In this document: piece after piece, positions 653 to 58,146 of the stretch
Numbering within the stretch: position 1 is the stretch's first letter
Layout: the number at the start of each line of letters is the position of its first letter
Assembly (NCBI GenBank): GCA_963769935.1
Contig: CAVYNY010000022.1
Span: forward strand, 512,001 to 576,000
From: an uncultured delta proteobacterium
Lineage (GTDB): Bacteria > Desulfobacterota > Desulfobacteria > Desulfobacterales > JAFDCJ01
Direction of reading: 5' to 3'
Length of the DNA: 64,000 nucleotides
Made by a program: the position numbers and the translations under genes
The notes under the pieces: model-generated
The model's database searches: none
What the model was told of the DNA's origin: nothing
What the model saw: the letters and a program-made list of their open reading frames with translations, nothing else

Positions 653-1939
653 TTACATTCCAAACAATGACGGAAACCATAGCGCCGTTCCGGGAATAAA
701 CCATATGATAAGCGCAACGGTCAAAATACCGAAGACAAAAGGAATTGAATCTTTGGCGATCGCTTCAACAGACAACCCGCTGACGCCCGATGCGACAAAT
801 AAACAAAGACCCACCGGCGGGGTCACCAGTCCGGCCGCCAAAATAACCATGTAAATCATGGCGCCTTGAATCGGATCGATACCGGATTTAAGCATAAGCG
901 GCGCGATTATCGGGCCTACCAGAAGAATGATAACCGATATGTCCATGATCATGCCGAGCAGCATGAATAAAGCGACCGTGATGATGATGAAGCGTTCCGG
1001 CGATCCACCGATGATCAGCAATTTTTCAGTAATAATCATCGGCACATCCATAATGGTAAGAACATAAGAAAAAAGTGAGCTGCCGGCCACAATGAAAAGA
1101 ACCATGGCTGACAGGGTTCCGGCCTTTAAAAATACTTTCGGAAGATCTCTTAAACTAAGTTCTTTATATATGAACATACTCAGGACGAGACAGTACAGGA
1201 CCGCAATTATGGCTGCCTCAGTCGGCGTAAAGAGACCCGAAACGATTCCACCGATAATTAAAAATGGCGCGATCAACGTCAAAATTCCATCTTTGGATTG
1301 AACAATTATTTCGCGCCAACGAAAACGGCTGGCGTTCACCATAACCTTTCCTGTACGAGATAATTGAACACAAAAATATCTGAATCAGCCCTATCAGGAT
1401 TCCGGGAACCATCCCTCCCAGAAAGAGATTGCCCAGAGATACGCCGGATACGAAACTCCAGAGCACCATCGGAATTGAGGGCGGAATTATCATGCCGATG
1501 CAGGAAGATGAAGCCGTGACGGCCGCCGAAAACGGTCCTGAATAGTTCTGGCGTCTCATGGCGGGGATCAGAATAGATCCTAAAGCGGAGGTATCCGCCG
1601 AAGCCGAACCGGTAATTCCGCCAAAAAGCATACTGGCCAACACGTTGACCGCCGCCAGCCCTCCGGGAAGAAATCCCACCAGCGCACTGGCAAAGGCAAC
1701 GATACGACGTGTCAAGCCGCCGCTTTCCATGATGGCTCCGGCAAGCATAAAAAAGGGAATCGCCAATAAAACCCAGCTTCTGGTCACCCCGTACATACGC
1801 TGCGCAATGATCTCAATCGCCGTAGAACCTTCATGAATGAAAAGCGCCATTACGGCGGAAAACGCGAGCGCAACGGCAATCGGCACCCGCATAAAAGAAA
1901 CAAGACCATCAAAATAAGCATCAAGATCCAGGGTTCCAT
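653..1939 (-). CDS. dctM: TRAP transporter large permease, frameshifted near 1900 and 1320
   Basis: ORFs 1218-1892 (LAIPFFMLAG, GITGSASAD, IIPPS) and 653-1342 (FTPTEAA, TPPVG) are two halves; likely start MEPWILM at 1939. Confidence 0.85.
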
Positions 1940-2032
1940 GATATTTATTTACAGTTTTCCCTGTCGTTATCGAGGCATATAATGGTTATTAAACGAAAGC
2001 CGAATTTAAAAAATGCCGCCGTGCAATATAAT

Positions 2033-2063
2033 TTACGCCGCCGGTCAACGGTCGGCGGCGTAA
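2033..2063 (-). terminator. Hairpin just downstream of dctP (terminator or mRNA stabiliser)
   Basis: TTACGCCGCCG-9 nt-CGGCGGCGTAA inverted repeat. Confidence 0.55.
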
Positions 2064-2072
2064 TTAATGATT

Positions 2073-3059
2073 TTATTTTACATTGACAATGGCCTCCACC
2101 CATTTGGGGCCATATACTTCTTTCAACTGCGGAACGCAGACCTCATAAAATATCTTAAGAAAAGCGTCCAGGTCGATATCTTTTTCCTCCGCCACAATCA
2201 TGCCTTTGGATTTAACCAGATCGATATATTCCTTCTCCTGAGCTAAGCCCAGCGCCGGAACCATAATCGCAGTTTCTTTCGCTGCCGCCATAATTATTTC
2301 CTGCTGGGCGGAATCCAGGCGGCCCCATGCTTTCCTGCTGAGGGTCACGATGTGCGGCGGCAAACCGTAGGGCAGCAATGAGACATATTTCTGTACTTCA
2401 TAGAATTTAGAACCAACGATATGGGAAAATGGATTGTGCTGGCCATCGACAACCTTGCGCGAAAGCGCCATATACAGCTCGGCGAAATCCATCGGAACCG
2501 GCACGGCTCCCATCGCCTTGGTCACAATACTGTATGCCGGAACATTGGGATCTCGGATTTTGAGGCCCTTCATATCTGCCGGTTTCAGAATGGGACGCAC
2601 GCTGTTGGTAGGTCGTCGGAACGACCCGTGCGGGAAGAATAAAAAGCGGTTTCACACCAAGCTCTTGTTCTACAGCTGCCATTAATTCTTGGCCGACAGG
2701 TCCGGTAACAACTTTAGTGAAGTGGTCAAAATCGCGATATATAAAGGGGGCCTGGAACACACCGGCCCAAGGCAAAAAGCGTTCCCATGTACCCGCTATC
2801 AGACCGTCTATGGTTCCGGATTTCACGCCTTCCTGCAATTGCTGTTCAGATCCCAATGTCGCAGAATGATAAAGCTTAATTTCTATATCGCCTTTGCTTT
2901 TGTAGGCAACTAAAGCGGCAAAGACCTCACCACCTTGCTGCTGAGGGCTGATGGGAGCACCGACATGCCCGATTTTTATCGTAACTTTAGCACTTGAGGG
3001 CAATGCTGCCACGGCAAATATAATTAACAAAGCAACGAAAAAACGACAATTTTTTTCAT
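2073..3059 (-). CDS. dctP: TRAP transporter substrate-binding protein, frameshifted
   Basis: ORFs 2407-3030 (LGSEQQLQEGVKSGTID) and 2073-2600 (DMKGLKIR, GAVPVPMDFAELYMAL, VDGQHNP); signal-peptide start MKKIVVFSLL at 3059 is out of frame. Confidence 0.85.
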
Positions 3060-6430: not shown

Positions 6431-8953
6431 TCACCTTTTGGCTGGCAACGCCGGCTGGTCAGCCGTTGGCGTCTTTTCGATGGGCACGGCCTCGGCGTGC
6501 CAGATATCCCGGTTGTATTCCTGAATCGTGCGGTCGGATGAAAACTTTCCGATCCGGGCGACATTCAAAATGGATTTGCGGGTCCAGGCCTCCGGGTCAC
6601 CATACAAGGTGTCGATTTCCATCTGGGCGCGCTGGTAGGCTTCAAAATCGGCCAAAACCAGATAGCGGTCCTCATTCATGAGCAGGTCCATCAGCGGCTG
6701 GAACAAGCTGCGGTCATCCGGGCAAAAGAAACCCTCACGAATCAGATCGATGGCCTGTTTGAGCGCGGGAATGTTCTGGTAAAACTCATGCGGCCGGTGG
6801 GAAGATCTCTGGTCGGCGACTTCCTCGGCGGTGAGTCCGAAGATGAATATATTTTCAGCTCCGACTTCCTCCATGATCTCGATGTTGGCGCCGTCCAGTG
6901 TTCCAACGGTAAGTGCGCCGTTCAGGGCGAACTTCATGTTGCTGGTCCCCGAAGCCTCGTAGCCGGCAGTGGAAATCTGTTCGGACACATCCGCGGCCGG
7001 ATAAATGATCTCGGCCGTCGAGACCCGGTAGTTGGGGATAAACACCACTTTAAGGGACCGGTTGGTGGAGGTATCGCGGTTGATCATATCGGCTGCATGG
7101 CAGATGAACTGGATGATCGATTTAGCAGTGAGGTAGGCGGGCGCGGCTTTGCCGCCGAAAAAGAAGGTGCGGGGTTGGATCTGAAAGTCTTTTTCCTCCT
7201 TGAGCTTCAGCCAGAGACAGACAATATGCAAAATATTGAGCAGCTGGCGTTTGTACTCATGGATACGTTTGACCTGTACATCGAAAAGCGAATCGGGGTC
7301 CGGGCGCACGCCGGCCAGCTTAAAAGCCAGACCGGCCAGCCGTTGTTTGTTGCGGCGTTTGATTTCGCGCCACTCCCGGTGGAAGTCGGGATCTCCGACC
7401 AGGGACTCGATTTTCCTGAGTTCGTAAAGGTCTTTGATCCAGTGATCGCCGATGTGCCGGGTGATCAAGGCCGCTAATTCCGGATTGGCGGCCAGAAGCC
7501 AGCGGCGTTGTGTGATCCCGTTGGTCTTGTTGGTGAAACGCCCAGGGTACATCTCGTTGAAATTGCTGAGCTCTTTTTCCTGCAGCAGGCGGCTGTGAAG
7601 CTCGGCTACACCATTGACCGCGTGGGAGCCGACGATGGCAAGGTGCGCCATGCGCACCCGCTGCTCAGGTCCCTCCTCGATCAGCGACATGCTGCGCAGG
7701 CGTTCCGGTTGGCGCATAAAGCTAATGGAGACGTCTTTTAGGAAGCGTCGGTTGATTTCATGTACAATCTGAAGATGCCGCGGTAAAAGCTTGCCGAGCA
7801 TGGAGACCGGCCATTTTTCCAAAGCCTCGGATAAAAGTGTATGGTTGGTGTAGGCGCAGGTACGGGTGGTCAGGTCCCAGGCATTCTCCCAGCTCATGCC
7901 ATAGTTGTCCAAAAAAAGGCGCATCAGCTCGGTGACAGCCAGCGCCGGGTGGGTGTCGTTGAGCTGGATCGCGACTTTGTCGGGGAAGGCTTCGAAGGTG
8001 TCATGGGTAACCAGGTAACGCCGAATGATGTCTTTAATGGAACAGGATACAAAAAAGTACTGCTGTTTCAATCGGAGCTCGCGGCCTTCGTAGAATTCAT
8101 CATTGGGATAGAGAACCTTTGAAATGTTCTCGGAAACGTTTTTTTCCTCCACGGCCTTGAGATAGTCTCCGTGCTGAAAATAGTTCAAATCGAATTCGTT
8201 GGACGCCCTGGCCGACCATAATCTCAGGGTATTGACCGTGTTGTTGTTGTATCCGGCGATGGGGATGTCGTAGGGAATGCCGACGACATCGCTGGTGTCG
8301 GTCCACTCGCTTTGGATCCGTCCGTCCGGCAGGGTGACCTGTTTGACCCGGCCGTAAAAGTGCACCGTAAAGATGTATTCCGGATGGGAAATCTCCCACG
8401 GATCGCTGTAGCGGAGCCAGTTTTCGGGAAGTTCCACCTGCCGCAGGTTTCGAATCTCCTGGTCGAAAATACCAAACTCGTAACGAATGCCGTATCCGAC
8501 GGCCGGCAGTTCGAGGGTTGCCATCGAATCCAGAAAGCAAGCCGCCAGGCGGCCAAGGCCCCCGTTGCCCAGCCCCATGTCCGGCTCCTGGTCGACGAGT
8601 TCCTCCAAATCGATTTTCAGCTCCTGCATGGCTTTGCAGGTTTCCTGGTACATATCCAGGTTGATCAGGTTGTTGATCAAAAGGCGGCCCATCAGGTATT
8701 CAGCCGACAGGTAATACACGCGTTTAACATCCGCCTTGTAATACTGCTGCTGGGTTTTGATCCAGCGCTCGATTAAACGATCACGGGCCGAAAGCGCCAG
8801 CGCAAGATAGAGATCGCGCGTCGTGGCGGTATACTGGTCCTTGGACAGCGAATATTCCAGGTGGCTGGCGAAGGACAACTCTATGCCCTGCGCATCCATG
8901 CCTTTGTGGTAAGTTCCCCAAGACTGGAACAGCTTGCTATTTTTCATGGTCAT
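6431..8953 (-). CDS. glgP: Glycogen/alpha-glucan phosphorylase
   Basis: GLGNGGLGRLAACFLDS, QLNDTHP, EASGTSNMKF (PLP lysine). Confidence 0.97.
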   Translation of the reverse strand: MTMKNSKLFQSWGTYHKGMDAQGIELSFASHLEYSLSKDQYTATTRDLYLALALSARDRLIERWIKTQQQYYKADVKRVYYLSAEYLMGRLLINNLINLDMYQETCKAMQELKIDLEELVDQEPDMGLGNGGLGRLAACFLDSMATLELPAVGYGIRYEFGIFDQEIRNLRQVELPENWLRYSDPWEISHPEYIFTVHFYGRVKQVTLPDGRIQSEWTDTSDVVGIPYDIPIAGYNNNTVNTLRLWSARASNEFDLNYFQHGDYLKAVEEKNVSENISKVLYPNDEFYEGRELRLKQQYFFVSCSIKDIIRRYLVTHDTFEAFPDKVAIQLNDTHPALAVTELMRLFLDNYGMSWENAWDLTTRTCAYTNHTLLSEALEKWPVSMLGKLLPRHLQIVHEINRRFLKDVSISFMRQPERLRSMSLIEEGPEQRVRMAHLAIVGSHAVNGVAELHSRLLQEKELSNFNEMYPGRFTNKTNGITQRRWLLAANPELAALITRHIGDHWIKDLYELRKIESLVGDPDFHREWREIKRRNKQRLAGLAFKLAGVRPDPDSLFDVQVKRIHEYKRQLLNILHIVCLWLKLKEEKDFQIQPRTFFFGGKAAPAYLTAKSIIQFICHAADMINRDTSTNRSLKVVFIPNYRVSTAEIIYPAADVSEQISTAGYEASGTSNMKFALNGALTVGTLDGANIEIMEEVGAENIFIFGLTAEEVADQRSSHRPHEFYQNIPALKQAIDLIREGFFCPDDRSLFQPLMDLLMNEDRYLVLADFEAYQRAQMEIDTLYGDPEAWTRKSILNVARIGKFSSDRTIQEYNRDIWHAEAVPIEKTPTADQPALPAKR

Positions 8954-9205
8954 CTCCCCGGGATTAAATTTTGTAAGCTACCAATCGATAATGGCGCATG
9001 CAGATCGATAAATATTAATTCTATAACGACGCCTGCAAACAGTCAATGGAGCTTTGGCGGGCTGATAGAACATTAAAAGTCATCGGCCATGCGGTAGGTT
9101 GGCCTTTGTCAAATGGGATGGCCGGAAAAAAAGAAGCCGGCTGAGAGTAAAGAATCCTGGCCTATAGGATCAGGTTTTCAATGTTGGAATACACTCAACC
9201 CGGGT

Positions 9206-12200
9206 TTAACGCCCGTCGGAGGCCAGCAGGCGGGCGAAGGCTTCGGTAATCGAATCGATTGATTTCACCGGATTGCCTAAATCAAGCCGCACGGGGTCAA
9301 GCAGACGGGACTTGCCTGCATATTGCATCATTACATAGGCTTCCACGGATGGCGCTGTGAACACAATCGGCAGGTCCAGCCGCACCGACTCGATTCGGGG
9401 GATTTGTTTGTCCAGGTTCAGGACCACCTCATCAAGGCCCTGCCGGATCTTGTCTTTCACCGCATAGTCGGCCCCGGCGGCTTGAGCCTGGCTCCAGCTT
9501 GCCGGCAGCCTGCCGATGGCGCTCTGGAGGTCCTGCAATTGGTTGCGGAAGGGCTTTACCGGATCCGGAATCGTGATCGTTTTGGAGAAGGTTTTTCCGA
9601 CGGTCTTGCGGTAGGTATACTTTATGTCGCCCATATCAATGACGGCCTGCAGCATTTGCTGCAGCAGCGCGCGGGTCTGGGCGTTCCGGGCGGTTTCGTC
9701 GCCGCCGGTGATATTATTCAGTCCATCCTCCAATCGTTTAATGCGGGGCGCAAAGTGCTGCTGAAAGAACGCCTGTGCCGCCTTTCTGATGTCCGATTCT
9801 TTGACGGCCAGCTTCTGCCACCATGTCAGCCCCCGATAGGCGCTTTTGACCCGTGCCGTGATAATTCCCGGTATTGTCGCAGTTCTTAAGTCTTTCAAGT
9901 AGCCCGGCAGTTTGCGGCGCAAATCATTAAATCCTCCGATGTTGCTTTGAAAGTCGGCCAGCGCCTGATTCATGATGTTTTGAGCGTCGGCGGCAGCCCG
10001 GTCGATTTCGCCCTGATACCTTTCTATTGATAAGCCGAGTTTGGCGTTCAGGCCGCTCACGTCATCCAGTCGGGCCCGGGCACCTAGCGGGGTCGGCTTG
10101 TCGACATCCAAATACAGTACAACTTCCGCGCAGTGGGTACCGAACAAGCCGGCGGTACCGACCCCGATCTCAAATCCGGTACCGTTAAAACGCGCAAAAA
10201 TGTCCGTTGCGCCCGTGGGGGTCTGCCCCTTGGCGTAGCCCCAGGAGAATGTGCCTTTGAGATAGACTTGATCCTGCCCGATATAAAAATCGCCGGCCAG
10301 GACCGCTGCATCGAGCAACCGGAGTTCGGCTTCCAGCTCGAAACTGTGATCGGTAACGGTGATAGTCTGCGTGGAGCCGATGAGCTCGGTCTTGTCAAAC
10401 GTGAGGCTGCAATCTCCTTCGACGGTGGTCACGCCTTGCTGACTGACCTTGACCAGGCCGCACAATCTGAGCGATATCCGGCCGGCAATGCGGCCATCCA
10501 TCATCAACCTGGTCGCAAAGCCGCCGCCGCCGGTCACGGCCATGCCGAAATTGGTCCCGTATTCAAGAATGCCAGCCAGGCCGCCCCGGGCCATCAGCAG
10601 GACGATAAAACCCTTGTCGTAGGCGGGCCCGCTTTTGGCCGGCAGATTATCCAGCACGGCATCGGCATTGAGTTCACCCAGCAGCTTTTGCGCGTCTTTG
10701 TCAGGGACGATTTTGTTCCTGAACTCATCTTCGGTGGTGATACACCAGCCCAGTGCGGCTTCAAATCTGAGCGGACCAAACGCGGCGCCGCCTTTTTGCG
10801 ACCCGATGCGAATGAATCCATCGGTCTGCGGGTTCCGCAGGGGTATGGCCTGAATCAGGTATCCGGCGTTGCCGAATTTCATGGCATCGAGGAAGCATTT
10901 TATGCCGTAGGCCAGGTCCATGGTCGGCAGTGCCTTTTGCAAGCCGAGCACAGCGCCGCCGAGATAGTCGGGCAGAGCTATATAGTTGGGGCCGATCGTC
11001 AGGTCCAACGCGAAATTTTTCTCGTTGGGCGGATCGTGCAGCTTAGCGTCAGGATTGCTGAAAAACGGGATCAGACTGCCGATCACGGCGAACAGATTGG
11101 ATTGTTCCTGCAAGTGCCAATCTGCCAACAACCTAAACCCGGTCCAGGCTTGATAGTTCCAGTTGAGGGTGTCGTAAGTCAACGGGATCGGCACCGGCAG
11201 CGCGGGCCAAAGGACAAGCGTGGTCTCGCCCAGGGTAATCTCATTTTTGAGGCCGCGGGCCTGCTCTTGGGCGATGATCCCGGTACCGGCGACTACCAGG
11301 CTGATCAGATCGAACTGATCGATGACGCCGTCGATTTTGACCAATACCGCTCCGCCGACAGTCTGCCCGACATCCAGGCTGCGCAAGGTCACACCCAGAA
11401 ACCCCGGCGGTACACCGGCAAACCAGGGCAGCATGACTTTGAGCGGATGCCCATCGTCCGTATGCAGGCCGATGATCGGGCCGCCGCCGGGTGAAGCGCC
11501 GAATTTCAGCCTCAGCTCTTTAATGTCCGGTATCTGCAGATAGCCTTCGAAGTCCGCCGGCAGCCGGTCAATGATCATTTTGAATTGCTTCGACAGCGTC
11601 TCAAAGTCCGCCAGGGGCTCGGCGAGAAGTTTGTCTTTTTTAATCTGCGCGACTGTATTCCGGCCGAGAAATTTCTCCAGTGATCCCGCCAGATCGGTAA
11701 AATCGAAGACTTCCACCGGCACGCTTTCGGGAAGGTAGCCCAATAGGCTCGAAGGAAAATCAAGCCGGCCGAGAATATACTTGACGGGCATTAAGGGAAG
11801 CTTGAGCGGGCTCGGCAGTTCTACGCCGGACGTGCCGATCCAGGCATCCCCTTCGAACGTGAGCGTCGGTATGTCTACCCGGAAAATACCAAATTCCCCG
11901 AAGTTCCAGTCCAGGAAGTCCCCTTTGGCGTCGGTTTTATAATTGAGCGCCCTGAAAGGTGAGGTGCCATTGGCAAGCGCCAGCGAAAGTCCTTTGCCCA
12001 GCGACAGCGCCAGATCGAAATCGGGATTTAAAAATTCGAAATTCGGCTTGCCGGTGTTGGGATCGGTCCCCAAAAAATAGTTGAGCTGCGGGGGCAACTC
12101 CACATGCAGGGTGCCCCGGATCTCGGGCGCTTCTCCCAGACTGGCGCCGATCTTAGTGATACTGATCTTCGGCAAAAATTCCCGGCCTTCGACTTCGGCC

Positions 12201-14518
12201 GAGAACATGCGGCACTCGGGCGCCAGCGGCGTGGCCAGGATGCAGTCGAAAAATATGCCCTTGTTGCTGACCCTCAGCCGGCCGTCCGGCAGGTCGGCGG
12301 GAAAATAATTCCGGACCAATTCCGGAATATCATGCAGCGCGCCGCGGGCGTTCGTCGTCAAAGACCAGGTCTTACTACTGCTGTCAACCTCTACTCGAAT
12401 CCCGGATAAGGCGAGTTCGAAAACAGGCTGGTGTCCGGCGAGCGGATTCAGAGACACCCGCATCGGGCTTGGCTCGCGAAAGATAAATCCGAGCCTGTTA
12501 TTTTCATCGTCCGAAGATAGCTGGAGGTCGAAATCAGACGCGAACAAGGACCGCCCGATCGTGATCCGCCCGGATCCGGCGACGGCAATCCCTAAACTGG
12601 ATTGGCCGTCGTCGCGGACCGCTTGCGCCAGCGATATTGTGAAACTGGACAGGCTCAATGAAGCCGTATCGTCTATGGATAACAACACCGGTGCCGGCGT
12701 CGCGCTCCAAGAGAAACTCATCGTCCGGCTTGCATCGCCAACCGAGAAGTCCGCCGCAAGGTTCATATCGTAGTCAAAAAGCTGCGCGGCGAGATTTCCC
12801 CGGGCCTGCCATTGGCCGCCGGCGGCGAGCTCAAACCTCAGTGAAAAATCACCGAATGCAAGGCCTTGCGCCGGCTGTCCGGGGCCTTGGCCGGTAAGCT
12901 GGATGAAACCGTCGATTTCACTCTCGGCATTTTTCCGGCTAAGCCCGATGGTGACATCGGTAATATTCATGCCGCCGCCGGCCGGAAACTCCCATGTCCC
13001 GGATGACCGGCCGCTGATGGAAAACGCGCCGGTCGCAGGTGCGGCGGTCAGCCCCACATCGAAGAGCTCGGCGTCCGGCAGGGCGGTGGGAAGAGAGATC
13101 CCGGTTAGAAACTCCCTGACGAGCACCGCCAAATTTATATGTGGGATGACACCGCTGAAGGCAACCGCATCAGACAGCTCAGCGCTTATTGCGACCTCAA
13201 CGCCTTGCACCTTCGCGAGGCCGCTCACGCTTGCAGCTGTCGTCGCACGTTGGCCGGCGCCCGTGTGAGCGAGCTGCAGCGCCATGTTGCCGATCGTTAA
13301 TTTGGCCGCGCCCAGGTCAATCTCCCAGGCATCGGCGACTTCACCATACACCGTCAGACTCCCGGCTCCGATATCGGCGGAAACTGCGAAGCCGGAAATC
13401 TTCAGGCTGGGCAGCCAAGGCGCTTCGGCCCAGAAATGTTTGATCAGGCCGGCAACATCAATCTGACCGCGGGTCAACTGGCCCGAAAGACGAAACCCTG
13501 GGATCCCGATAAACACCTCGACCGTGGTACCGGCTATCTGCACGGCACCGGAAACCGAAACCAAAGCGGGAACGCCGGACTCGGCATCAAAGCTGATCTC
13601 TACGCCGGTGATGGCGAATCCGTCCAATCCCAGGTTTTTAATCGTCTGTTGAAATGTTGGGCTCATATCTGCCGCGCCAACCAGGGCCGCCAAATCATCA
13701 AGGGCCGGCAAGCCTTGGCCGGTGTCCGGCAGAATTTCGGCAACGGCGTCACCGATACCGCCCAGGTTGCGAAAAGCCACGACATAGCCGCCGCTGCCGA
13801 TACGTACGTCGGCCCGCAAACTGAAAGCCAAGCCGGATTGCGGCGTCTTGGTCGACGATGCGCAGTGCATCACGGATATGCCGGCGGAACGCAGATTCAC
13901 GGCGGGCAGACCCTGCAAGATCGTTAGCCGGCCTGCCAGGGCCAGTTCGCATGAGAGATAGCATTGGGGTTCCGAGCCCAGGCCGAGCTCCAAAGTAAAA
14001 TCTTCGATGGCGGTTGGGTCTGCGACAGGCAGTCCGATACGCTGCAGCGTTAACCAGGCGGATGCGCTCGACCCACCGGCCCATGCTACCAGTTGCGTCA
14101 GGCCGACATGCTGCTTTTCATCTGTCACCCTCAAGACCCAGGTGTCCTGCTCTGAAAGGCTGCCTCGGACAGGCCAGCGGGACCCGCCGACAGTAATTGC
14201 CCCATCTAGTTGAGCATCGACCTTGAGAGCCGTATCTGCCGCTTCCGTAATAATCAGGCTGACAGCGGTTGGTTTTAAACCTGATTCCGAAATCCCCGGC
14301 ATGGGCCAACTTCCGTCGATACTTCCGCTTACGCAAAGAACCGGCGGCGCCGATTTCTCGTCCAATACCAACTCAGCCTGATGGATCACGAGCTGCGGTT
14401 CGGGCAGGTCGTCCAAAACATACAGGATTTCTGCGGGCACCCCCGAGTTCTTATTCAGCGTGAGTGTACGATCTTCAGTGCTGTTTGCCAGGTTGCGATA
14501 GAGTTGCTGCAGGCTCAT
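9206..14518 (-). CDS. 1770-aa hypothetical protein, beta-rich with a helical segment near the C-terminus
   Basis: Uninterrupted 5.3-kb ORF; alternating hydrophobic strands; no signal peptide or known catalytic motif seen. Confidence 0.85.
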   Translation of the reverse strand: MSLQQLYRNLANSTEDRTLTLNKNSGVPAEILYVLDDLPEPQLVIHQAELVLDEKSAPPVLCVSGSIDGSWPMPGISESGLKPTAVSLIITEAADTALKVDAQLDGAITVGGSRWPVRGSLSEQDTWVLRVTDEKQHVGLTQLVAWAGGSSASAWLTLQRIGLPVADPTAIEDFTLELGLGSEPQCYLSCELALAGRLTILQGLPAVNLRSAGISVMHCASSTKTPQSGLAFSLRADVRIGSGGYVVAFRNLGGIGDAVAEILPDTGQGLPALDDLAALVGAADMSPTFQQTIKNLGLDGFAITGVEISFDAESGVPALVSVSGAVQIAGTTVEVFIGIPGFRLSGQLTRGQIDVAGLIKHFWAEAPWLPSLKISGFAVSADIGAGSLTVYGEVADAWEIDLGAAKLTIGNMALQLAHTGAGQRATTAASVSGLAKVQGVEVAISAELSDAVAFSGVIPHINLAVLVREFLTGISLPTALPDAELFDVGLTAAPATGAFSISGRSSGTWEFPAGGGMNITDVTIGLSRKNAESEIDGFIQLTGQGPGQPAQGLAFGDFSLRFELAAGGQWQARGNLAAQLFDYDMNLAADFSVGDASRTMSFSWSATPAPVLLSIDDTASLSLSSFTISLAQAVRDDGQSSLGIAVAGSGRITIGRSLFASDFDLQLSSDDENNRLGFIFREPSPMRVSLNPLAGHQPVFELALSGIRVEVDSSSKTWSLTTNARGALHDIPELVRNYFPADLPDGRLRVSNKGIFFDCILATPLAPECRMFSAEVEGREFLPKISITKIGASLGEAPEIRGTLHVELPPQLNYFLGTDPNTGKPNFEFLNPDFDLALSLGKGLSLALANGTSPFRALNYKTDAKGDFLDWNFGEFGIFRVDIPTLTFEGDAWIGTSGVELPSPLKLPLMPVKYILGRLDFPSSLLGYLPESVPVEVFDFTDLAGSLEKFLGRNTVAQIKKDKLLAEPLADFETLSKQFKMIIDRLPADFEGYLQIPDIKELRLKFGASPGGGPIIGLHTDDGHPLKVMLPWFAGVPPGFLGVTLRSLDVGQTVGGAVLVKIDGVIDQFDLISLVVAGTGIIAQEQARGLKNEITLGETTLVLWPALPVPIPLTYDTLNWNYQAWTGFRLLADWHLQEQSNLFAVIGSLIPFFSNPDAKLHDPPNEKNFALDLTIGPNYIALPDYLGGAVLGLQKALPTMDLAYGIKCFLDAMKFGNAGYLIQAIPLRNPQTDGFIRIGSQKGGAAFGPLRFEAALGWCITTEDEFRNKIVPDKDAQKLLGELNADAVLDNLPAKSGPAYDKGFIVLLMARGGLAGILEYGTNFGMAVTGGGGFATRLMMDGRIAGRISLRLCGLVKVSQQGVTTVEGDCSLTFDKTELIGSTQTITVTDHSFELEAELRLLDAAVLAGDFYIGQDQVYLKGTFSWGYAKGQTPTGATDIFARFNGTGFEIGVGTAGLFGTHCAEVVLYLDVDKPTPLGARARLDDVSGLNAKLGLSIERYQGEIDRAAADAQNIMNQALADFQSNIGGFNDLRRKLPGYLKDLRTATIPGIITARVKSAYRGLTWWQKLAVKESDIRKAAQAFFQQHFAPRIKRLEDGLNNITGGDETARNAQTRALLQQMLQAVIDMGDIKYTYRKTVGKTFSKTITIPDPVKPFRNQLQDLQSAIGRLPASWSQAQAAGADYAVKDKIRQGLDEVVLNLDKQIPRIESVRLDLPIVFTAPSVEAYVMMQYAGKSRLLDPVRLDLGNPVKSIDSITEAFARLLASDGR

Positions 14519-14631
14519 GCGAACACCCTTGACTTTCGGATACTGCCGGCATCAGGCCATGACCGGACAGCGCAAGGATGGGATTAGCCTTATGCCGCGA
14601 TCGTATCGCCCGGATCGTCCGATGCGTCGGT

Positions 14632-15651
14632 TTATACAGCTTTGACCGTTTGGGCCAGCCATCCTTTGTACCATTCTTTCTCTTTCTTGTTCGGGTCATT
14701 AATTTTAGAACTGATACAATCCACATCCATCCCGGCATCGAGCGCAGGTCTAGAAAGCTGTTGATTTTCCGGAATCGTTTTTCGCAAATCAGCGTCAAAC
14801 ATAGGAAGAAGTTTTTCCAGGCTATTCATGTCATCGCCGTAAAAAGCCCTGACACAAATCTCCAATCCCTGCCGGCGACTCTTGACTTGATCGTTTGGCG
14901 GCGTATCGCATAGGCGCACCGCTTGTTCGACGAGGGCTTTTACTGCTTTGAACTGCTCTTCGTACTGCGGAAAAACCCCAATTTCGAGATTGTAAGGTTT
15001 GGCAGCGCCAAACAGGATTGCGAAATACTCGGCGAAGCCTTCGGCAAAAAAAGAGCTTGCGGACAAATTGCCGCGGCTTTCAAATGCATGAAAAATTTCG
15101 TGAAAGAGCGCATCGCGAAAGCCCTGTTGATGGGTATTGAGGAAGATCCCGTCGTCAGTATTGAACAATCCTATGGATTCATTGAAGATAACCTCGGCGA
15201 CATATTCTTCGAAGATCCAGTACTGCCAGCGAGACGGCCATCGCGAGGCATCCCCGTCGTAAAACCCCTGATAGATGCTCTTTTCGGTAAACTCTTTAAA
15301 CCCGCCCGGTATGCTCAGCCGGCCCCAGGTATCGATCCATCTATTCCATACCTGCGAGACGACAATACGGATGGACTTGTCTCCGATTTCGCGCACGAAT
15401 CGATAGGGATTTCCAAGCAGAAAAATAGAGGGACATTTATCCGCAGGATCTTTTTGGTAGCGGGGTCCTTCGTAATACTTTAATGCCGGCGCTTTGGTCA
15501 CCCCATAGCGGCTCAAAAAGGTCCTGGCATTTTTGACAAAGGTGCGTGGGTCGATGCCTTCGAGTTTGCCGAGCTCTTCAATCAAGGGGTAGGGGCTTGC
15601 CGCCGGCAAGTTGGCTGCTTTTTTAAATTCGAACTTCGTGCCCCCGTACAT
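14632..15651 (-). CDS. Putative gluzincin-type zinc metallopeptidase
   Basis: LFHEIFHAFE (HExxH) followed by FAEGFAEYFA; AGAGG-type RBS upstream. Confidence 0.7.
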   Translation of the reverse strand: MYGGTKFEFKKAANLPAASPYPLIEELGKLEGIDPRTFVKNARTFLSRYGVTKAPALKYYEGPRYQKDPADKCPSIFLLGNPYRFVREIGDKSIRIVVSQVWNRWIDTWGRLSIPGGFKEFTEKSIYQGFYDGDASRWPSRWQYWIFEEYVAEVIFNESIGLFNTDDGIFLNTHQQGFRDALFHEIFHAFESRGNLSASSFFAEGFAEYFAILFGAAKPYNLEIGVFPQYEEQFKAVKALVEQAVRLCDTPPNDQVKSRRQGLEICVRAFYGDDMNSLEKLLPMFDADLRKTIPENQQLSRPALDAGMDVDCISSKINDPNKKEKEWYKGWLAQTVKAV

Positions 15652-15942
15652 CGTCCACGTACCTCTTTATGCTTGAAATCAGCAGCAAATTCGGCCCCTT
15701 CCGGGGCTGATTTTTATCTGCGATTATACGGATAAACTCGCTGTATCGGCATCCGCCGGTCTCGTATTTCTTTAATTTCTTCAGTGTGCCGGATTATTTT
15801 GCCATCTGTTTTTTTTGAAGCATTTAAATATATTTCCCCGTCTAGCCGATGTCAATTTACTATTGATTCAAGCATTTTTCCGAATCGAAGATGGAAAAAA
15901 CAGCAAATCGAGCTGCCGGCGAGCCGGTTTGCAACATTTTTA

Positions 15943-17035
15943 TCATTCCTTGTCAATGATGGCGGGTTCTCCGTTTTGTTCGTCGGCGGACACCCATGTC
16001 TTCAAAAGGGTATAGGCGACTGCCAGCACCACCGGCCCGATGAAGAGCCCGATGATGCCGAATGCTATCAGGCCGCCGATAACACCGGCAAAAATCAGCA
16101 GCAGCGGCAGGTCGGCCCCTCTCCTGATCAGTGCCGGCCGCAAAAAGTTATCCAGGATAACGACGGGCAGCGACCAGATCAGCAGGACAGTCCCCCCGAA
16201 GGTATCGCCCCTCCAGTACAGCAAGATGATTGAGGGCACCAGCACTAGGCCCGGGCCGAGCTGGGCCACGCAGAGTATAAACATAACGGCTGTAAGGACG
16301 GCGGCCGCCGGCACGCCGGCGACGGCCAACCCAATTCCGCCAAGGACGGCTTGGATGATGGCCGTGAGGGCGACACCGAGAGCCACCCCCCGGACAGCCT
16401 TGGCGGCGAGAACGGCAGCCTCCTCTCCCTTTTGCCCCGCCAGGCGGCGGGCAAAACTTTTTACGCCGGTTGCCGCTGCATCGCCATTGGCATACAGGAT
16501 GGCTGCAATAACCACTGTCAGCAGGAATTGGAGAATCATCATCCCGGCACTGCCGGCCTGGGAAACGAACCAGCCTACGACCTTGCCCGCATAAGGTGCA
16601 AGCCGCGCGGACAGGTCCTCCGGACGGAGTGCAGCGAGATCCTGCCAGCGATCAACAAGTTTTGCGCCGATCAGCGGGATGCCCGCAATCCACTGCGGTG
16701 GCGGCGGAACGGTAATGGATGCCAGCGACTTGACCCAGCCCACGATTTCATCCGCCTTGTCAACGATGGTGACAACGGCGAGCGAGAAAGGCACGACCAG
16801 CACCAGCAGCAGCACCCCCGTCATTACCGCCGCGGCAAACCTGCGTTTGCCCCAAAGAAGTTTCTGCAGGTCCAGCAGAAGGGGCCAAAGTGGCCACGAC
16901 GATCGTGGCTGCCCAGACAAACGGGGTGAGGAAGGGGTGAACCAGCCAGAAGCTGGCCAGGATAAGTACGCTGATAAACAGTACCGCCAGAGTCGTGCGG
17001 GTGACATCAAATGGGGCGCTGATCTTTATATTCAT
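15943..17035 (-). CDS. ydiK: AI-2E family transporter (YdiK-like), frameshift near 16890
   Basis: N-terminus in ORF 16760-17035 (DVTRTTLAVLFI..VWAATIVVAT); C-terminus DNFLRPALIRRGADLP..GLFIGP. Confidence 0.8.
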
Positions 17036-18506: not shown

Positions 18507-19217
18507 ATGGATGAAGACACCTTTCGAGAGAAGATTGCTGCTGTTTTGGATGATATCCACTTGCAGCTGGTCCGGTCGCTGAATTTTCAGGCAGAAGGCA
18601 CCGAGATCGACAGGAACATACGTGATTTGGAAAAACAGCACACTGAAGCGGCCTCGGGTTTGCTGGAATCTACCGCTGTAACCAATACACTCGCCGGGCA
18701 GCGAACCGACATGGCCAAGGAGCGCACCGCGCTCGTCCGTGAACAAACCCGCCTTTCCACGAAATCCACGGAGCTCGCCACCATTCGCACCGAGATGTCG
18801 CGCGAGCGATCCTCTCTGGCAGGTCAAAGGACGGACCTGGCGGTTTTGCGTACCGATTTCTCACGGTCCCGGACAAGTTTGGCCGATCAGCGCACAAAGA
18901 TGGCCGGCAATCGCACCCGGTTTTCGGAGAAGCGCACCAGACTGGCGGGCACGCGCACGATTTTTTCTAATATGCGCACGGAACTGGCTCACGGCAGGAC
19001 CTATTTAGCGCTCGTTCGCACCGGCTTGACCTTTTTGACACTGAGCATCGCGTTGTTTCGCATGTTCGGCCTTTCCTGGTGGTCTGTGTTCGACGGCGTC
19101 CTGGCGCTTGGGAGTCTGACCATGACCGTGGTTGGATTGACGGGTTATTGGCATTCGTTTCGTGCCGTGAGGGCCCTCGAAGGCAGGGTTTCTGGTGATG
19201 AAGAGGCGGCGGCCTGA
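18507..19217 (+). CDS. DUF202/YidH-like membrane protein with expanded heptad stalk
   Basis: RTYLALVRTGL plus 2 TMs, preceded by a run of xLAxxRT-like heptads. Confidence 0.75.
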   Translation: MDEDTFREKIAAVLDDIHLQLVRSLNFQAEGTEIDRNIRDLEKQHTEAASGLLESTAVTNTLAGQRTDMAKERTALVREQTRLSTKSTELATIRTEMSRERSSLAGQRTDLAVLRTDFSRSRTSLADQRTKMAGNRTRFSEKRTRLAGTRTIFSNMRTELAHGRTYLALVRTGLTFLTLSIALFRMFGLSWWSVFDGVLALGSLTMTVVGLTGYWHSFRAVRALEGRVSGDEEAAA

Positions 19218-19348: not shown

Positions 19349-22003
19349 TTACTGGCAGATATCTTTTTGATCCACGTTGTAGGGCGTCGTCATATCGAAC
19401 CAGGTGTCGGAAGGCTTGGTAAAAAGTTCCTTATTGTTCCGCTGCAGCTGGAGGCGGTCACTCTCGTCCATCTTGGCACGATAGAGGGTTTTTACGGTTT
19501 TTACATCTTCGATCGACAGATTTTTCACATCGCGCAGGTCGGCGCACCTCAGGTCCGCACCCGTCAATTTTGCATTATTGAAATCAGCCCCCTTAAAATC
19601 TGCCAATCCTAATTGCGCGTCCCTCAGATCCGCATCACCCAGGTTGGCATCCGTCAGAACGGCTTCACGAAAGTCGGCGCCGTGAAAATTCCCCTGCCTC
19701 AGATCGGCGAGTTCCAGGTTGGCACCGCGCAAGTCGGCTTTTCGAAAATCCGACTCCCGCAGCCTGGCGCCGCGCATTTCCGAATTGCGCAAATTGGCTT
19801 TGACCACAAACGCCTGATATATGTCGGCATACCGGAGATCCGTTTTTTGCAATAGGGCGCCTTCAATAGCGTTCAGGCGGTCTGATTCAGATTTTATCAA
19901 CCAGTAATTGTCCGGCAATTTAGAGACTTGCTGTTCCTTGAAGTCGAAAAATACATCGTAGCCGATCTTATGAAACAGCCATGGTACCAGGGCATGAACA
20001 TCTCCATACTTCTTAAGGTGGCGTTCGGGGGTTCCCTTGAAAACACCCAAAGACAGGGTCCAGACGGCCAGTGCGACCAGCACCACACAAATGATCCCGG
20101 AAATCTTTACCTGCTGTCTTAAACGCATGGTCCCCTGGCCTCCGGGTCTGGAGGAGCGGTAAAAAAGGACCGCCATCAAGATGGAAAGGGTTATAAAAAC
20201 GATGTGAAAAGCGGTGACCGTCCAGTCGCGCCGCAACAAATAATGCACCCACAATCCGATGAATACCGCCGGTACCGTAATCCAGGCCAGCACCTTCAGA
20301 CTCGCTATTTCCAGCCAGGCCGTCCAGGATCTGTTACCCGTAAATGCTTTCGGCTGGGATGACAATATCAGCACGAGACGCTGCAAGTGGAAAAGAAACC
20401 AGGCATAAATGCTGGTCATCACCAGCGGGGATACCAGGTAGAGCAGGTTGGTGGACATCCTGGTACCGATAATCGGCAGAGAAGTCGAATTGGTGGCCAA
20501 CGATACATCATCGGTGGTTGCGATCACCAGCCAGCCGTAAATGCACGCATAGACACAAACCAGAAAAGAGATGATGAACATCTTGTTCGTCTTTTGTTTC
20601 TTAACACTTTGTTCCAGGAAACCCATGGCCAGGTTGAACTTCGTGTCGTAGCGGCCGGCCCATTCGACACTGGGTTGTTGCTGCCGCTGCCAGTCCAGGG
20701 CCACCTGCAGGTCGGCTTCCTTGTACAGGCCTGCTTTGCCGCCGGCGTTCAGTTCGGCACTTTGAGCCAGTCTTTGGTATATCCGGGCGGACTCGGCTTC
20801 CTGGTCCACCCAATCGGCCAGGGTTTTCCACTGCCGAATCAGGCTTTCGTGGGAGATATCCACCAGCGGGTCATCGGTGGAGGTTCGATATGAAAGCACC
20901 AGAAAGTTACGGTTCTCGGCATTGAAACGCTTGATCAGCGACATGATTGTTTCCGGCACCACCTTTTTGCCGCAGATGGCTGCGATCTGGCTCAGATGGG
21001 CGGGCCGCCGGATGCGCCGGTTGGAGGCATCGGTCTCGGTGAGGGCCTGAAACATGCGCCTTGCGATCAGGCGGTATTCCTCATCCAGATCTTTCAGCGC
21101 TTCGTCCGCATGCAAACACAGTGAATTTTTAAGGGTACCCGATCTTTCGTAATGGTCGAGATCGATCGCTCCCCGGCCGCCGTCTTCGGCCCATACATTC
21201 CACGTCCGCATGAGCACGTGTTGCAGCACCGGCAGGTCGTCCCGGGTGTCGAGGCTTTCGTTCAGCAGACGGTCCATGAGGCGGGAGGTAATATCGGCCC
21301 CGGCCAGCCGGATGGGGCCAAGGAAGGCTTCCCGGCGTTGTTGGCGGGTCAGACGCGGAACTAAATACTGACTGTTGTTCATGGCTTCCGGCAGCCCCTG
21401 GAAGGCGTCACATTCGCCCAGAAAATCCGACCGCATGGTCAGTACGACATAAATGGGAACCACGGTCTGTTCCGCCAGATACAGCAAGATGGAAACGAAA
21501 TCAGCCGACTCCTCCCGCACCCGGGTCGTTCTGGCCTGCTGAAAGCGAAACAACTCTTCAAACTGATCCACCACGATCAACAGGTTGCTGTCCTCACCAT
21601 TGCGAGTAGACTGAGCCAGCTCGATAAGCGCTTGCGCCCCCCGGCGTTGAACCGTTTCCATTAAGGATTCGACGGCAGCAGAGAGATTTGGAGACTCAGT
21701 CAGGGAAGCTACGGACGCGACCAGATGGTAAAGCGGCGCATCGCCCGGCTTGAAGGTCGCGATTTCCCACAAATCCCGGTCCTGCACCAGAAAACCCGCT
21801 TCCAGGTTGGGAATGAGTCCCGCCCGCACCAAAGAGGACTTGCCGCAGCCGGAACTGCCCACCACGGCCACAAATCGATGCGCGTACAATTGCCTCAGAA
21901 GGGCGTGGGTTTGTTCCTTGCGCCCGAAATAGTAAATGCTGTCTCGGCTTTCAAAGGGCCGCAGACCGACAAATGGGTTATGCACGGCGGCAGCGCGATT
22001 CAT
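19349..22003 (-). CDS. nSTAND1-type NTPase with about 5 TM helices and pentapeptide repeats
   Basis: NPFVGLRPF, Walker A GSSGCGKSS, Walker B LIVVDQFEELF, VDISHESLIRQW; ADLRG/ANLEL/ADLRQ repeats. Confidence 0.9.
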   Translation of the reverse strand: MNRAAAVHNPFVGLRPFESRDSIYYFGRKEQTHALLRQLYAHRFVAVVGSSGCGKSSLVRAGLIPNLEAGFLVQDRDLWEIATFKPGDAPLYHLVASVASLTESPNLSAAVESLMETVQRRGAQALIELAQSTRNGEDSNLLIVVDQFEELFRFQQARTTRVREESADFVSILLYLAEQTVVPIYVVLTMRSDFLGECDAFQGLPEAMNNSQYLVPRLTRQQRREAFLGPIRLAGADITSRLMDRLLNESLDTRDDLPVLQHVLMRTWNVWAEDGGRGAIDLDHYERSGTLKNSLCLHADEALKDLDEEYRLIARRMFQALTETDASNRRIRRPAHLSQIAAICGKKVVPETIMSLIKRFNAENRNFLVLSYRTSTDDPLVDISHESLIRQWKTLADWVDQEAESARIYQRLAQSAELNAGGKAGLYKEADLQVALDWQRQQQPSVEWAGRYDTKFNLAMGFLEQSVKKQKTNKMFIISFLVCVYACIYGWLVIATTDDVSLATNSTSLPIIGTRMSTNLLYLVSPLVMTSIYAWFLFHLQRLVLILSSQPKAFTGNRSWTAWLEIASLKVLAWITVPAVFIGLWVHYLLRRDWTVTAFHIVFITLSILMAVLFYRSSRPGGQGTMRLRQQVKISGIICVVLVALAVWTLSLGVFKGTPERHLKKYGDVHALVPWLFHKIGYDVFFDFKEQQVSKLPDNYWLIKSESDRLNAIEGALLQKTDLRYADIYQAFVVKANLRNSEMRGARLRESDFRKADLRGANLELADLRQGNFHGADFREAVLTDANLGDADLRDAQLGLADFKGADFNNAKLTGADLRCADLRDVKNLSIEDVKTVKTLYRAKMDESDRLQLQRNNKELFTKPSDTWFDMTTPYNVDQKDICQ

Positions 22004-23496
22004 TAGCCAACTCCGGCCGCAAGGAGTCGGGCGGTAATTCGGGGGTCGATGCGATCTGACTGGCTGTTATCCAGAATGTCGATGTGGATCAGGGGAGGGA
22101 AGGCGGGCAGGTCCGGCCGGCCTGTGCTGAGGGGCGCCAGGAACAACCAGATATGTTCGAGGCTGGATCGATTTTCAAATTCAAATTGTTCCGAGATTAC
22201 CTTGAAAGCCTTTTTGATGCGTCCAATCAGCCAGGCGGGTCCGACCTTGCCGCAAACCAAAACCAGGTTCTTCACATTCTTCACGGAATGCTCGAATTTG
22301 ATGAGGCTGACGGTGGGATCTTGGGACTCATGGTTGAAATCGACTTCAGCCCCCTTTTCCATAAGAAAATCGGCCAGTTTAAAGGCATAGCGCTGGTCCT
22401 TCTGGTGGGTGTCGATGAGATAGCTCGGGTGCCTGGCCGGGTCGTTGGTTTGCTGCCGAATCTGATCAATGCGGTCACGCACCAGACTCACGAAATCGCT
22501 TTGCAGACATTTGACAAACTCATACTGCCCCAGCGTTCTGGGTCTGGTTTCGCAATTTTGAAGAAACCGGCGCTGTGCTTCGTCTTCGACGGTGGCGATG
22601 TCCAGATCGGAGGGCACCCAAACCAGCTGCTGAATTGACTGTTTGAAGGCAATTTCGTGCTGCTCGCGGGGATAGGTGGTTTCTTTGCGATCTACGATTT
22701 TCCTTCCCGGCCACTGGTTCAGCAGATGAATGGAAAACCGCGCCCGAGCCAGCGACTGGCTCAAGGTGTCGGCATGGGCGGCCGCATCCATGGGAGGCGG
22801 AATCTCCGTGGCTACCTCCACCTTTTTTTGTTGAGCTTCGGCGATGATGCGCTCCTTGAAGTCCTGCAGCGCGTCCGGCACATCGGCCATAAAGATGGAT
22901 ATTTGTTCGGCCTGGGGAATATCTTCGGCCTGGACCAGGGACGCCGGCGTCATTTTATGGATGCAGTCTTCGATCGCATCCACGATGGGCCGTAGCTGCT
23001 TTTCAAAAGTGCTGTCGTTCGGTGAGGTAAAATCACCCGGGTTTTCATCGGATTCGGCATCGTTCATGGGGAATCCGCTGGCACCCTGAAATTCCGCAGG
23101 CCAGTTCTGATGCGGGATATTGTGAAGCAGGATGTTGAAAAGGCGAGATGAGTCGCCTATCTGTAAGCCGCCGCTTTGGCGGCCATGGGATTGGTAAAAC
23201 CGGTGCAGTTCCTTGCGGCAATAGTCCGACTGAAGGTAGTTGTGTGAGGTTAGGGCCAGGAAGACGGCAGATCCATCTAAAGCGTTTTGGATGGCGTCGT
23301 CAAACACGGTATTGCCGCGCATTCGTTTTTTATCACGCCAGATTCGAAGATCCGTCAGCCCCCGGCGTTTGTTGAGCCAGTTATACAGCCAGTCTTCAAA
23401 AACGTCCACCCAGCCCGGACGCCCGCCAAATCCATAATTGTCGTTATGGGCATAGCTGATGAAGATATCGTGATTGTAACCAGGTACCTGTGCCAT
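22003..23496 (-). CDS. TIR-domain protein with two further TIR/Rossmann-like modules
   Basis: DIFISYAHND, RIWRDKKR, YLQSDYCRKEL; stop overlaps the STAND start (TAATG). Confidence 0.88.
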   Translation of the reverse strand: MAQVPGYNHDIFISYAHNDNYGFGGRPGWVDVFEDWLYNWLNKRRGLTDLRIWRDKKRMRGNTVFDDAIQNALDGSAVFLALTSHNYLQSDYCRKELHRFYQSHGRQSGGLQIGDSSRLFNILLHNIPHQNWPAEFQGASGFPMNDAESDENPGDFTSPNDSTFEKQLRPIVDAIEDCIHKMTPASLVQAEDIPQAEQISIFMADVPDALQDFKERIIAEAQQKKVEVATEIPPPMDAAAHADTLSQSLARARFSIHLLNQWPGRKIVDRKETTYPREQHEIAFKQSIQQLVWVPSDLDIATVEDEAQRRFLQNCETRPRTLGQYEFVKCLQSDFVSLVRDRIDQIRQQTNDPARHPSYLIDTHQKDQRYAFKLADFLMEKGAEVDFNHESQDPTVSLIKFEHSVKNVKNLVLVCGKVGPAWLIGRIKKAFKVISEQFEFENRSSLEHIWLFLAPLSTGRPDLPAFPPLIHIDILDNSQSDRIDPRITARLLAAGVG

Positions 23497-27714: not shown

Positions 27715-29490
27715 GTGCGCCAAGCAAGCTTGGCGCTTCTTATGGAGTGAAAGTCTCCATCGGGTAAGGTTTAGCCAGCCACCCGTACCGCGTGTTGCGT
27801 GATTGGGAAGGATAGACATAGCGTCGAACGACCCACACGAAGCGTACACAGGGAATTCTATGGGCCGTAAGGAGGCTCGCACCCTCCTGAGGCGATTCAG
27901 CCTCGTCATTGCATGAGCAGGTGGCGACGATCTTAAGAAATCGGAAGCCTATACGAAGGGATCGATAAGACGGCGAGATCCTGGAGGGCCTGTCGGGGTC
28001 AGAGAGCATGGCACGTAGGAAGAGAAGCGTTAGGAACTTGGGAGACCCTTGCGTTTCCTGTTTGAACAGGTAGGGCTTTTCAACTAAATGAAGAGAGCCC
28101 GATGGGCGTGAGGGAGTCAGATCGTCTCATAGTACTCTGAGGCGGGAGAGCCGACCACATGGGGAAGGGGACGACGGATCTGTGTAGCTCGTAAAGGAAA
28201 CATGGCCCGGATAAGAAAGGCTGGATCAACCATGCAAACCTCACTGCGGGGAATATCGAGAAGGGCAGCAAAAGACAAAGAGCACCGGTTTGGCAATTTG
28301 TATGGATGTGTTGGACGAGAATTTTCTCAAGTGGTGTTTTTGGCAACTCAAAAGAGATGCCGCGCCTGGAGTCGATCGGGTGGATTTTTATGAATACCGG
28401 GAGAATCTGGACGAAAACATCGCGAATCTCGTCAAGCGTCTGAAACAAAAGAACTATCGAGCCAAGCTGGTCAGGAGACAGCTACATTCCCAAACTCAAT
28501 GGGAAACTGAGACCACTGGGGATTCCTGCTACGGACGACAAGGTGCTGCAATTTGCAGTGGCGAAGATTCTGGAAGCCATTTATGAAGAGGATTTTCTGG
28601 ATGTAAGTTACGGTTACAGACCGCGGACAGGTCCACAAGAGGCGGTACGGGAGCTGACCCGCAAGCTGCAGTTCGGAAGATTCTCACACATCGTTGAGGC
28701 CGATATCAAAAGCTTTTTCGACAATATCGATCATCATTGGATGATACGTATGCTCGAAGAACGCATCGATGATAGAGCGTTTCTGCGGCTGATTCAAAAA
28801 TGGCTGAAGGCGGGGATTCTGGATACCTGTGGTGAAGTGATCCACCCGGCAACGGGAACGCCTCAGGGGGGAATTGTATCTCCTATTTTAGCGAACGTGT
28901 ATCTTCATTATGCACTGGATCTATGGTTCGAGAAAAGAATCAAACGAGAGTGTAATGGAGAAGCACTGATCACCCGCTATGCGGATGATTTTGTATGTGC
29001 GTTTCAGTACCAACAGGATGCAGAGTTGTTTTATCAGCAGCTCAACGAACGTCTGGGAAAATTTGGCTTAGAGGTTTGCCCTGAGAAGACGAGGATTTTG
29101 CTGTTTAGCCGGAGTATGCTGAGACAAAGCGGAACATTCGACTTTTTAGGATTCGAGTTTCGCCGTGCGATCAGCCGAAAGTTCAAGTCGATCGTCCGAA
29201 GACGAACATCTCGGAAGAAACTCAGAGCCTCAATCGCCGCATTTACAGAATGGATAAAAAAGAATCGTAATAAGAAAATTTCCAAGCTGATGACAACCCT
29301 TAGAACCAAGTACCGCGGGTACTGGAACTATTATGGCGTTATCGGTAATTATGGCAGTTTGAAGACATTCTATTACCGGACAAGACGCATCCTGTTTAAA
29401 TGGCTCAACCGGCGCAGTCAAAGGTTGAGTTACAATTGGGCCGGATTCGGAGACCTGTTGAACCAGTTTTTGATACCGGCTCCGAAAATT
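27715..29490 (+). mobile_element. Group II intron, 5' part present, 3' domains V/VI not found
   Basis: GTGCG 5' end at 27715; typical motifs GGAACTTGGGAGACCC, GGAGTCAGATCGTCTCATAGTAC, GGGGAAGGGG; no GAGCCG-type domain V after the ORF. Confidence 0.8.
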
Positions 29491-29661
29491 TCTCTTTATC
29501 TTTCTGAACGAAGTCTCGGCAGAAGGCAACGCGCGACGAAACTACACTTGATCACCGCATACACACCGGAACAGATGCATATCGTTCTAAATCGGCTCGC
29601 ATCGAACTTGCGGTATGTCGTTTATAATCCTTATCCGCTTGTGAAAATCTTAGCAATATGA
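28232..29661 (+). CDS. ltrA: Group II intron reverse transcriptase/maturase without endonuclease domain; two +1 frameshifts near 28310 and 28482
   Basis: APGVD, YIPK..RPLGIP, GTPQGGIVSPILANVYLH, RYADDF, FDFLGF, domain X GYWNYY..WLNRRSQR. Confidence 0.9.
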
Positions 29662-57990: not shown

Positions 57991-58146
57991 CGAATGACGA
58001 TTGACGAATGAATAATAAAGGAATTCTGTCGTTTTATATTGGAACTATTGCTATGAAGAAAGGTAGAGCGACACGCGGCGCAAGCGCCTGCGCTGCGCGA
58101 GCGACTTCCACCATTCATCATTTGCCATTCGTCATTCGACATTCCT
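57960..58146. repeat. 187-bp element with perfect 16-bp terminal inverted repeats and GAATGAC heptamer arms
   Basis: AGGAATGTCGAATGAC (57960-57975) and GTCATTCGACATTCCT (58131-58146). Confidence 0.75.

Follow-up and report, generated by a model that had tools for sequence, protein, structure and literature searches.

The DNA analysed here, referred to as the window, is a 64,000-nucleotide stretch of contig CAVYNY010000022.1 from an uncultured delta proteobacterium of the order Desulfobacterales, and the subject is a pair of adjacent genes on its reverse strand, one encoding a probable zinc metallopeptidase and the other a very large beta-rich protein, termed the giant. The peptidase gene (339 amino acids [aa]; 14632-15651) lies upstream of the giant gene (1770 aa; 9206-14518) with a gap of 113 bp between them. 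The pair is flanked by the phosphorylase gene glgP (6431-8953) and an AI-2E/YdiK-type gene (15943-17010), and both genes are single-copy in their own 8.0-Mb genome (G000), where they are located on contig C22. Neither protein matched any entry in Pfam, NCBIfam, PADLOC or PHROGs. The original prediction, made from the sequence alone, had described the two open reading frames (ORFs) exactly so, with their sizes, co-orientation, spacing, glgP and ydiK flanks and the HEIFH and EGFAEY motifs; it had seen no signal peptide on either protein, and a hydrophobic N-terminus was indeed absent from both. Its picture of an intact giant in a window full of broken genes is right as to the giant ORF and overstated as to the rest, since only three genes (dctM, dctP and HcyBio) look split among the 44 ORFs scanned.

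Gluzincins are marked by an HExxH motif and a third zinc ligand, Glu, on the following helix. The corresponding features of the peptidase are:

14632..15651, reverse strand: probable gluzincin-type (clan MA) zinc metallopeptidase gene, 339 aa, no signal peptide (motif, homologues, model and dN/dS).
15088..15102, reverse strand: HEIFH zinc motif (H184, E185, H188; residues 184-188) in a predicted helix, 178-189.
15025..15042, reverse strand: EGFAEY (residues 204-209), with E204 as the likely third zinc ligand, in a predicted helix, 200-216.

H184, E185, H188 and E204 are invariant in all eight homologues, which are 38-84% identical to the peptidase, as are G205, F206, E208 and Y209. The ratio of nonsynonymous to synonymous substitution rates (dN/dS) was 0.15-0.20 against each of three metagenomic copies. 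Because of this invariance and the low dN/dS, the zinc motif is not a chance occurrence. The conserved HExxH and the Glu on the following predicted helix are both present by sequence and model, and the peptidase is likely a gluzincin of clan MA(E); the closest known group is the gluzincins of clan MA (M1, M4, M9, M30, M61; DUF1570).

The giant is divided into an N-terminal repeat region, a core and a tail, with the following layout:

9206..14518, reverse strand: giant gene, 1770 aa, single copy (ORF and genome search).
12809..14518, reverse strand: residues 1-570, a likely amphipathic N-terminal helix followed by tandem modules of about 115 aa, three of them detected (34-123, 364-450 and 474-546), from sequence and outside the 3D model.
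12119..12808, reverse strand: residues 571-800, predicted long antiparallel strands with hydrophobic alternate positions (model and alternation measure).
10445..12118, reverse strand: residues 801-1358, the family-defining alpha/beta core, exchanged as a block between relatives (profile, model and identities).
10064..10444, reverse strand: residues 1359-1485, a second predicted strand run, at the start of which LamG arrays are inserted in many relatives (model and relatives).
9206..10063, reverse strand: residues 1486-1770, the exchangeable tail, a predicted basic coiled-coil hairpin, helical head, beta-hairpin tip and terminal strand-strand-helix module (model).

Near-invariant residues of the core are G1051, P1183, R1237, K1214 and E1265. 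In the AlphaFold model (predicted local distance difference test score, pLDDT, 81), the antiparallel strands are long and hydrophobic on one face, and the tail is a basic coiled-coil hairpin. Hydrophobic alternation was measured on the sequence and not from coordinates, and fold searches were dominated by the helical tail. The hydrophobic positions may line one open groove.

The pairing is conserved beyond this genome. At locus L006, a 325-aa peptidase (37% identical) is encoded 69 bp before a 1783-aa giant (37% identical over the full length) in the same gene order as in the window, and this pair is flanked by a NACHT gene, without ydiK or glgP. Locus L004 carries the peptidase and then a homologous spacer, up to the first three codons of the giant, L003 breaks off within the spacer, and L005 within the gene. 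Upstream flanks vary among these loci. All full-length peptidase copies for which downstream DNA is available (window, L004 and L006) are followed by a giant. An 82% identical giant (P0003) and the peptidase P0026, which lie on contigs of equal length, were read as a further pair. In genome G015, a 100-aa peptidase relic (63 of 98 residues identical to the L006 peptidase) has no giant behind it.

A core profile built from 7 sequences matched 551 clusters at a cut-off of E<=0.001, of which 349 reached E<=1e-30; the family analysis covered the best 150 of the 551 clusters together with earlier hits. No Pfam, NCBIfam, PHROG or PDB match was found for the core. The giant had first been called an orphan of no recognised family, which holds for curated libraries and fails in sequence space, where it belongs to this 551-cluster family. 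The family spans several phyla, with Nitrospirales, Cohnella, Nostoc and Leptolyngbya represented among its named members in addition to this order. Relatives seldom carry it: counting the genome studied here, it occurs in 3 of 61, 5 of 351 and 2 of 401 genomes. The repeat of about 115 aa is present in the N-terminal third in 1-6 copies in 147 of 158 proteins, with 416 domain matches versus 7 in the reversed control. LamG domains, up to 14, are inserted after the core in many members, and at least four tail classes, roughly defined by patterns, occur on one core. The family has a mosaic make-up: within the core, P0004 and P0059 share 62% identity, and outside it P0004 is closer to the window giant than to P0059 (37 versus 24% before the core, 42 versus 27% after). 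A 1490-aa relative in G015 (L028:401-4873) has the N-terminal repeats and a coiled-coil tail without the conserved core, and a wider superfamily therefore appears, by sequence, to share the repeats; weak HBL/NheC scores of this protein fall over the coiled coil only. The accessible part of PMC12923769 contains nothing on the giant's family, and the cluster tables of PMC8213781, a source available in part, could include members of it.

His-x-Asp repeats end 15 of 145 family tails. At two loci, one from a cyanobacterium and one from this order (L019:9557-17333 and L043:4392-9117), giant-family tails with His-x-Asp repeats, or small genes, precede a radical SAM gene and an uncharacterised gene of about 300 aa. 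Sulfatase and cyclophane-type maturases give the radical SAM gene its best NCBIfam scores, none of which reaches the cut-off. The arrangement looks like an unnamed cassette resembling those for peptides made on the ribosome and modified after translation (RiPPs), fused to a giant protein.

The remaining elements around the pair are:

14519..14631, reverse strand: 113-bp spacer, with the homologous spacer in L004 ending at the giant's first three codons there.
15827..15855, reverse strand: candidate sigma-70-like promoter match, TTGACA-17-TATATT, 11/12, about 175 bp before the peptidase start.
9144..9193, no strand assigned: 50-bp dispersed repeat element just past the giant's stop codon (genome matches).

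The promoter match is the best of 6 in the region, where 4.1 are expected by chance. Because this strong match precedes the peptidase gene and glgP, the next gene after the giant, has a promoter-like site of its own, the matches suggest a two-gene unit. The 50-bp repeat has 47 matches in the genome, 22 of them at least 40 bp long, and is very deep in 4 of 4 runs.

The cassette is thus real: the pairing is conserved in one sub-clade, the zinc motif and the repeat/core/tail architecture are in place, and tails and cores are exchanged across the family. The novelty lies in family and architecture, for which there is neither a curated model nor a clear solved fold; the mechanism is inferred. On the best reading, still a tentative one, the giant would be a rod that binds lipid or membranes and serves in cell-cell conflict, its exchangeable tip being matured by its own neighbouring peptidase. 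It would form a long beta-sheet, hydrophobic on one face, and would bind lipid or membranes through this face and the basic helical tip. The peptidase would cut the giant, its presumed substrate, and so mature or release the tip. Signal-independent release, such as lysis, would then be followed by action on other cells or competitors.

Several results weigh against such a rod. The peptidase profile search was empty in 9 of 9 other giant-bearing genomes (G013, G584, G595, G465 and G457-G461), among them G013, which is of the same genus and has an orthologous 1753-aa giant. The peptidase is an optional partner of the giant, kept in one sub-clade, and since it was not found in these genomes the two genes are not an obligate two-gene system. 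Genes of an extracellular contractile injection system (eCIS) or a type VI secretion system (T6SS) were recognised beside the giant in none of the fetched homologue loci. Marks of polymorphic toxins were likewise absent from the pair, with no YD/RHS or toxin-domain match and no downstream immunity gene, the next gene being glgP. The giant resembles, in its model, the beta-groove lipid carriers, but homology to AsmA/TamB could not be separated from reversed controls, and the N-terminal transmembrane anchor of AsmA-like and repeating beta-groove (RBG) proteins is missing from its family (signal peptide or hydrophobic segment in 0 of 130 full-looking N-termini versus 23 of 27 AsmA controls). The two-gene toxin/effector or protease-activated system originally proposed stands in part. 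Homologues of the two genes do co-occur, and no characterised family matches the giant along its length. A protein of conflict or interaction would fit the swappable tails, the lectin arrays, the mosaic core and the patchy spread. The pairing is not obligate, however, and among the fetched homologues none has eCIS or T6SS genes next to it.

It is unlikely, though arguable, that the giant works in the cytoplasm as a bridge-like lipid-transfer protein without an anchor, carrying lipid from one membrane or inclusion of its own cell to another and regulated or released by the peptidase. Bacterial beta-groove lipid carriers are described as inner-membrane-anchored periplasmic bridges, designed with a variable repeat number, one-face hydrophobic strands and amphipathic helices (PMC10345924, as far as the available part goes). 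The giant matches this design in its variable repeats, in strands that are hydrophobic on one face and in a likely amphipathic helix at either end, and it has in common with AsmA-like, TamB and RBG proteins its large size, a variable number of strand and helix-loop modules and one-parity hydrophobic strands. The absence of a signal peptide (130 of 130) agrees with a cytoplasmic site. In profile comparisons the giant comes close to TamB/AsmA and shows no likeness to TonB-dependent barrels (0.1-0.4%), but the hhalign match to TamB (80%, E 1e-5) scores alike with the reversed control (36-65%), and AsmA, TamB and Chorein Pfam models had no match in the giant. Unlike AsmA/TamB, the family is sporadic and absent from most relatives, as a housekeeping function would not be, and its LamG lectin arrays and RiPP-like swappable tails point outside the cell.

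Improbable, too, is that the two proteins are cargo or accessory proteins of an unlinked eCIS, with the peptidase in a DUF4157-like role. A T6SS marker lies on contig C7 of G000 and a full eCIS on contig C18, neither of them near the pair. The complete-looking eCIS (G000:C18:1789-28090; L048, L049) has sheath, tube, Pvc16, AAA, gp25 and baseplate J genes, and the same locus holds two DUF4157 proteins (394 and 1078 aa). The HExxH family DUF4157 (eCIS_core) adjoins eCIS toxins, and a role in loading or maturation has been proposed, according to the part of PMC8213781 available. Common to that arrangement and to the pair is an HExxH gene beside a large signal-less protein in an eCIS-bearing genome. 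The pair differs in that the peptidase is not DUF4157 by sequence (no PF13699 match in the peptidase, P0002, and the genome's own DUF4157 proteins not found by its profile), in being unlinked to the eCIS locus, as are all fetched giant loci, and in a giant without library match. Of the 10 genomes with the giant core, 6 carry Pvc16_N, versus 25 of 351 in the order. Four of the six positives are cyanobacteria, however, and lie outside that order background; the order-level Fisher test gave p 0.04 with G000 and 0.25 without it, genome size confounds, and the closest architectures outside the genus (G461 and G584) lack the marker, as does G015, which has a more distant paralogue. The co-occurrence is weak, and a lead.

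Rhs/YD and Tc B-C proteins have a long beta-rich body, a variable C-terminal module, recombination between relatives and a protease step at the tip. The giant family shares with these polymorphic toxins the conserved body and variable C-terminus, and differs in tails that are structural or peptide-like rather than enzymes. Foldseek rows against Rhs/TcdB2-TccC3 gave template-modelling (TM) scores of 0.04-0.08, and of the secretion markers sought (signal peptide, PAAR, VgrG, LXG/WXG and RHS) none was found, a WXG100 hit at E 0.096 being below cut-off. By language-model features, the named Atlas cluster closest to the giant is that of the DUF6603 giants (0.79, below the lead threshold), which are similar in size and beta-rich; PF20248 (DUF6603) had no match in the giant, no literature was found on the family and it is itself uncharacterised. 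It is quite improbable that the peptidase is the active effector and the giant its carrier or chaperone. The enzyme is compact and signal-less, its full-length copies with downstream DNA available are followed by the giant, and the giant also occurs alone, as would a carrier with changing cargo; but it is never fused as a toxin tip in the family, has no Pfam Tox-MPTase match or adjacent immunity-like gene, and is encoded upstream of the putative carrier. Mere co-transfer of functionally unlinked neighbours fits the lack of the peptidase in most giant-bearing genomes, the relic in G015 and the differing GC content at third codon positions of the two genes (0.55 versus 0.69), and is nevertheless very improbable, as gene order, orientation and the short spacer have persisted down to 37% identity between different flanks.

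Elsewhere in the window, a 497-aa TIR protein abuts an 884-aa nSTAND1-pentapeptide protein 3.7 kb from the pair (19349-23496, reverse strand); a STAND/NACHT gene likewise adjoins the pair in L006. A group II intron-type reverse transcriptase ORF overlaps a 641-aa TIR-domain ORF by 4 bp (28543-31583, forward strand), possibly a defence pair or an intron insertion. An 848-aa ORF (58132-60678, reverse strand) has no Pfam match and no NCBIfam match near cut-off, and a 236-aa protein (18507-19217, forward strand), which has coiled-coil repeats and ends in a hydrophobic C-terminus, matches no family above cut-off. The dctM, dctP and HcyBio genes (653-3030 and 51966-53133) are each split over two overlapping frames and may represent assembly indels.

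If the giant is a membrane-binding rod matured by its neighbour, it might exemplify, although this wider proposal is doubtful, a new class of anchorless beta-groove proteins serving as modular delivery rods. These would have a lipid-lined body of adjustable length into which glycan-binding domains can be plugged, and a dedicated neighbour enzyme (a gluzincin here, a radical SAM pair for the His-x-Asp tip) would mature their exchangeable tip, the rod extracting lipid from a target membrane or inserting its tip into it. With the giant, a family comes into view that counts at least 349 strongly matching clusters in several phyla, and the pair offers a direct handle on it, with one enzyme, one candidate substrate and one catalytic mutant. 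An anchorless, signal-less beta-groove with lectin inserts and swappable tips would, if true, extend the lipid-carrier design to the cytoplasm or to cell-cell conflict.
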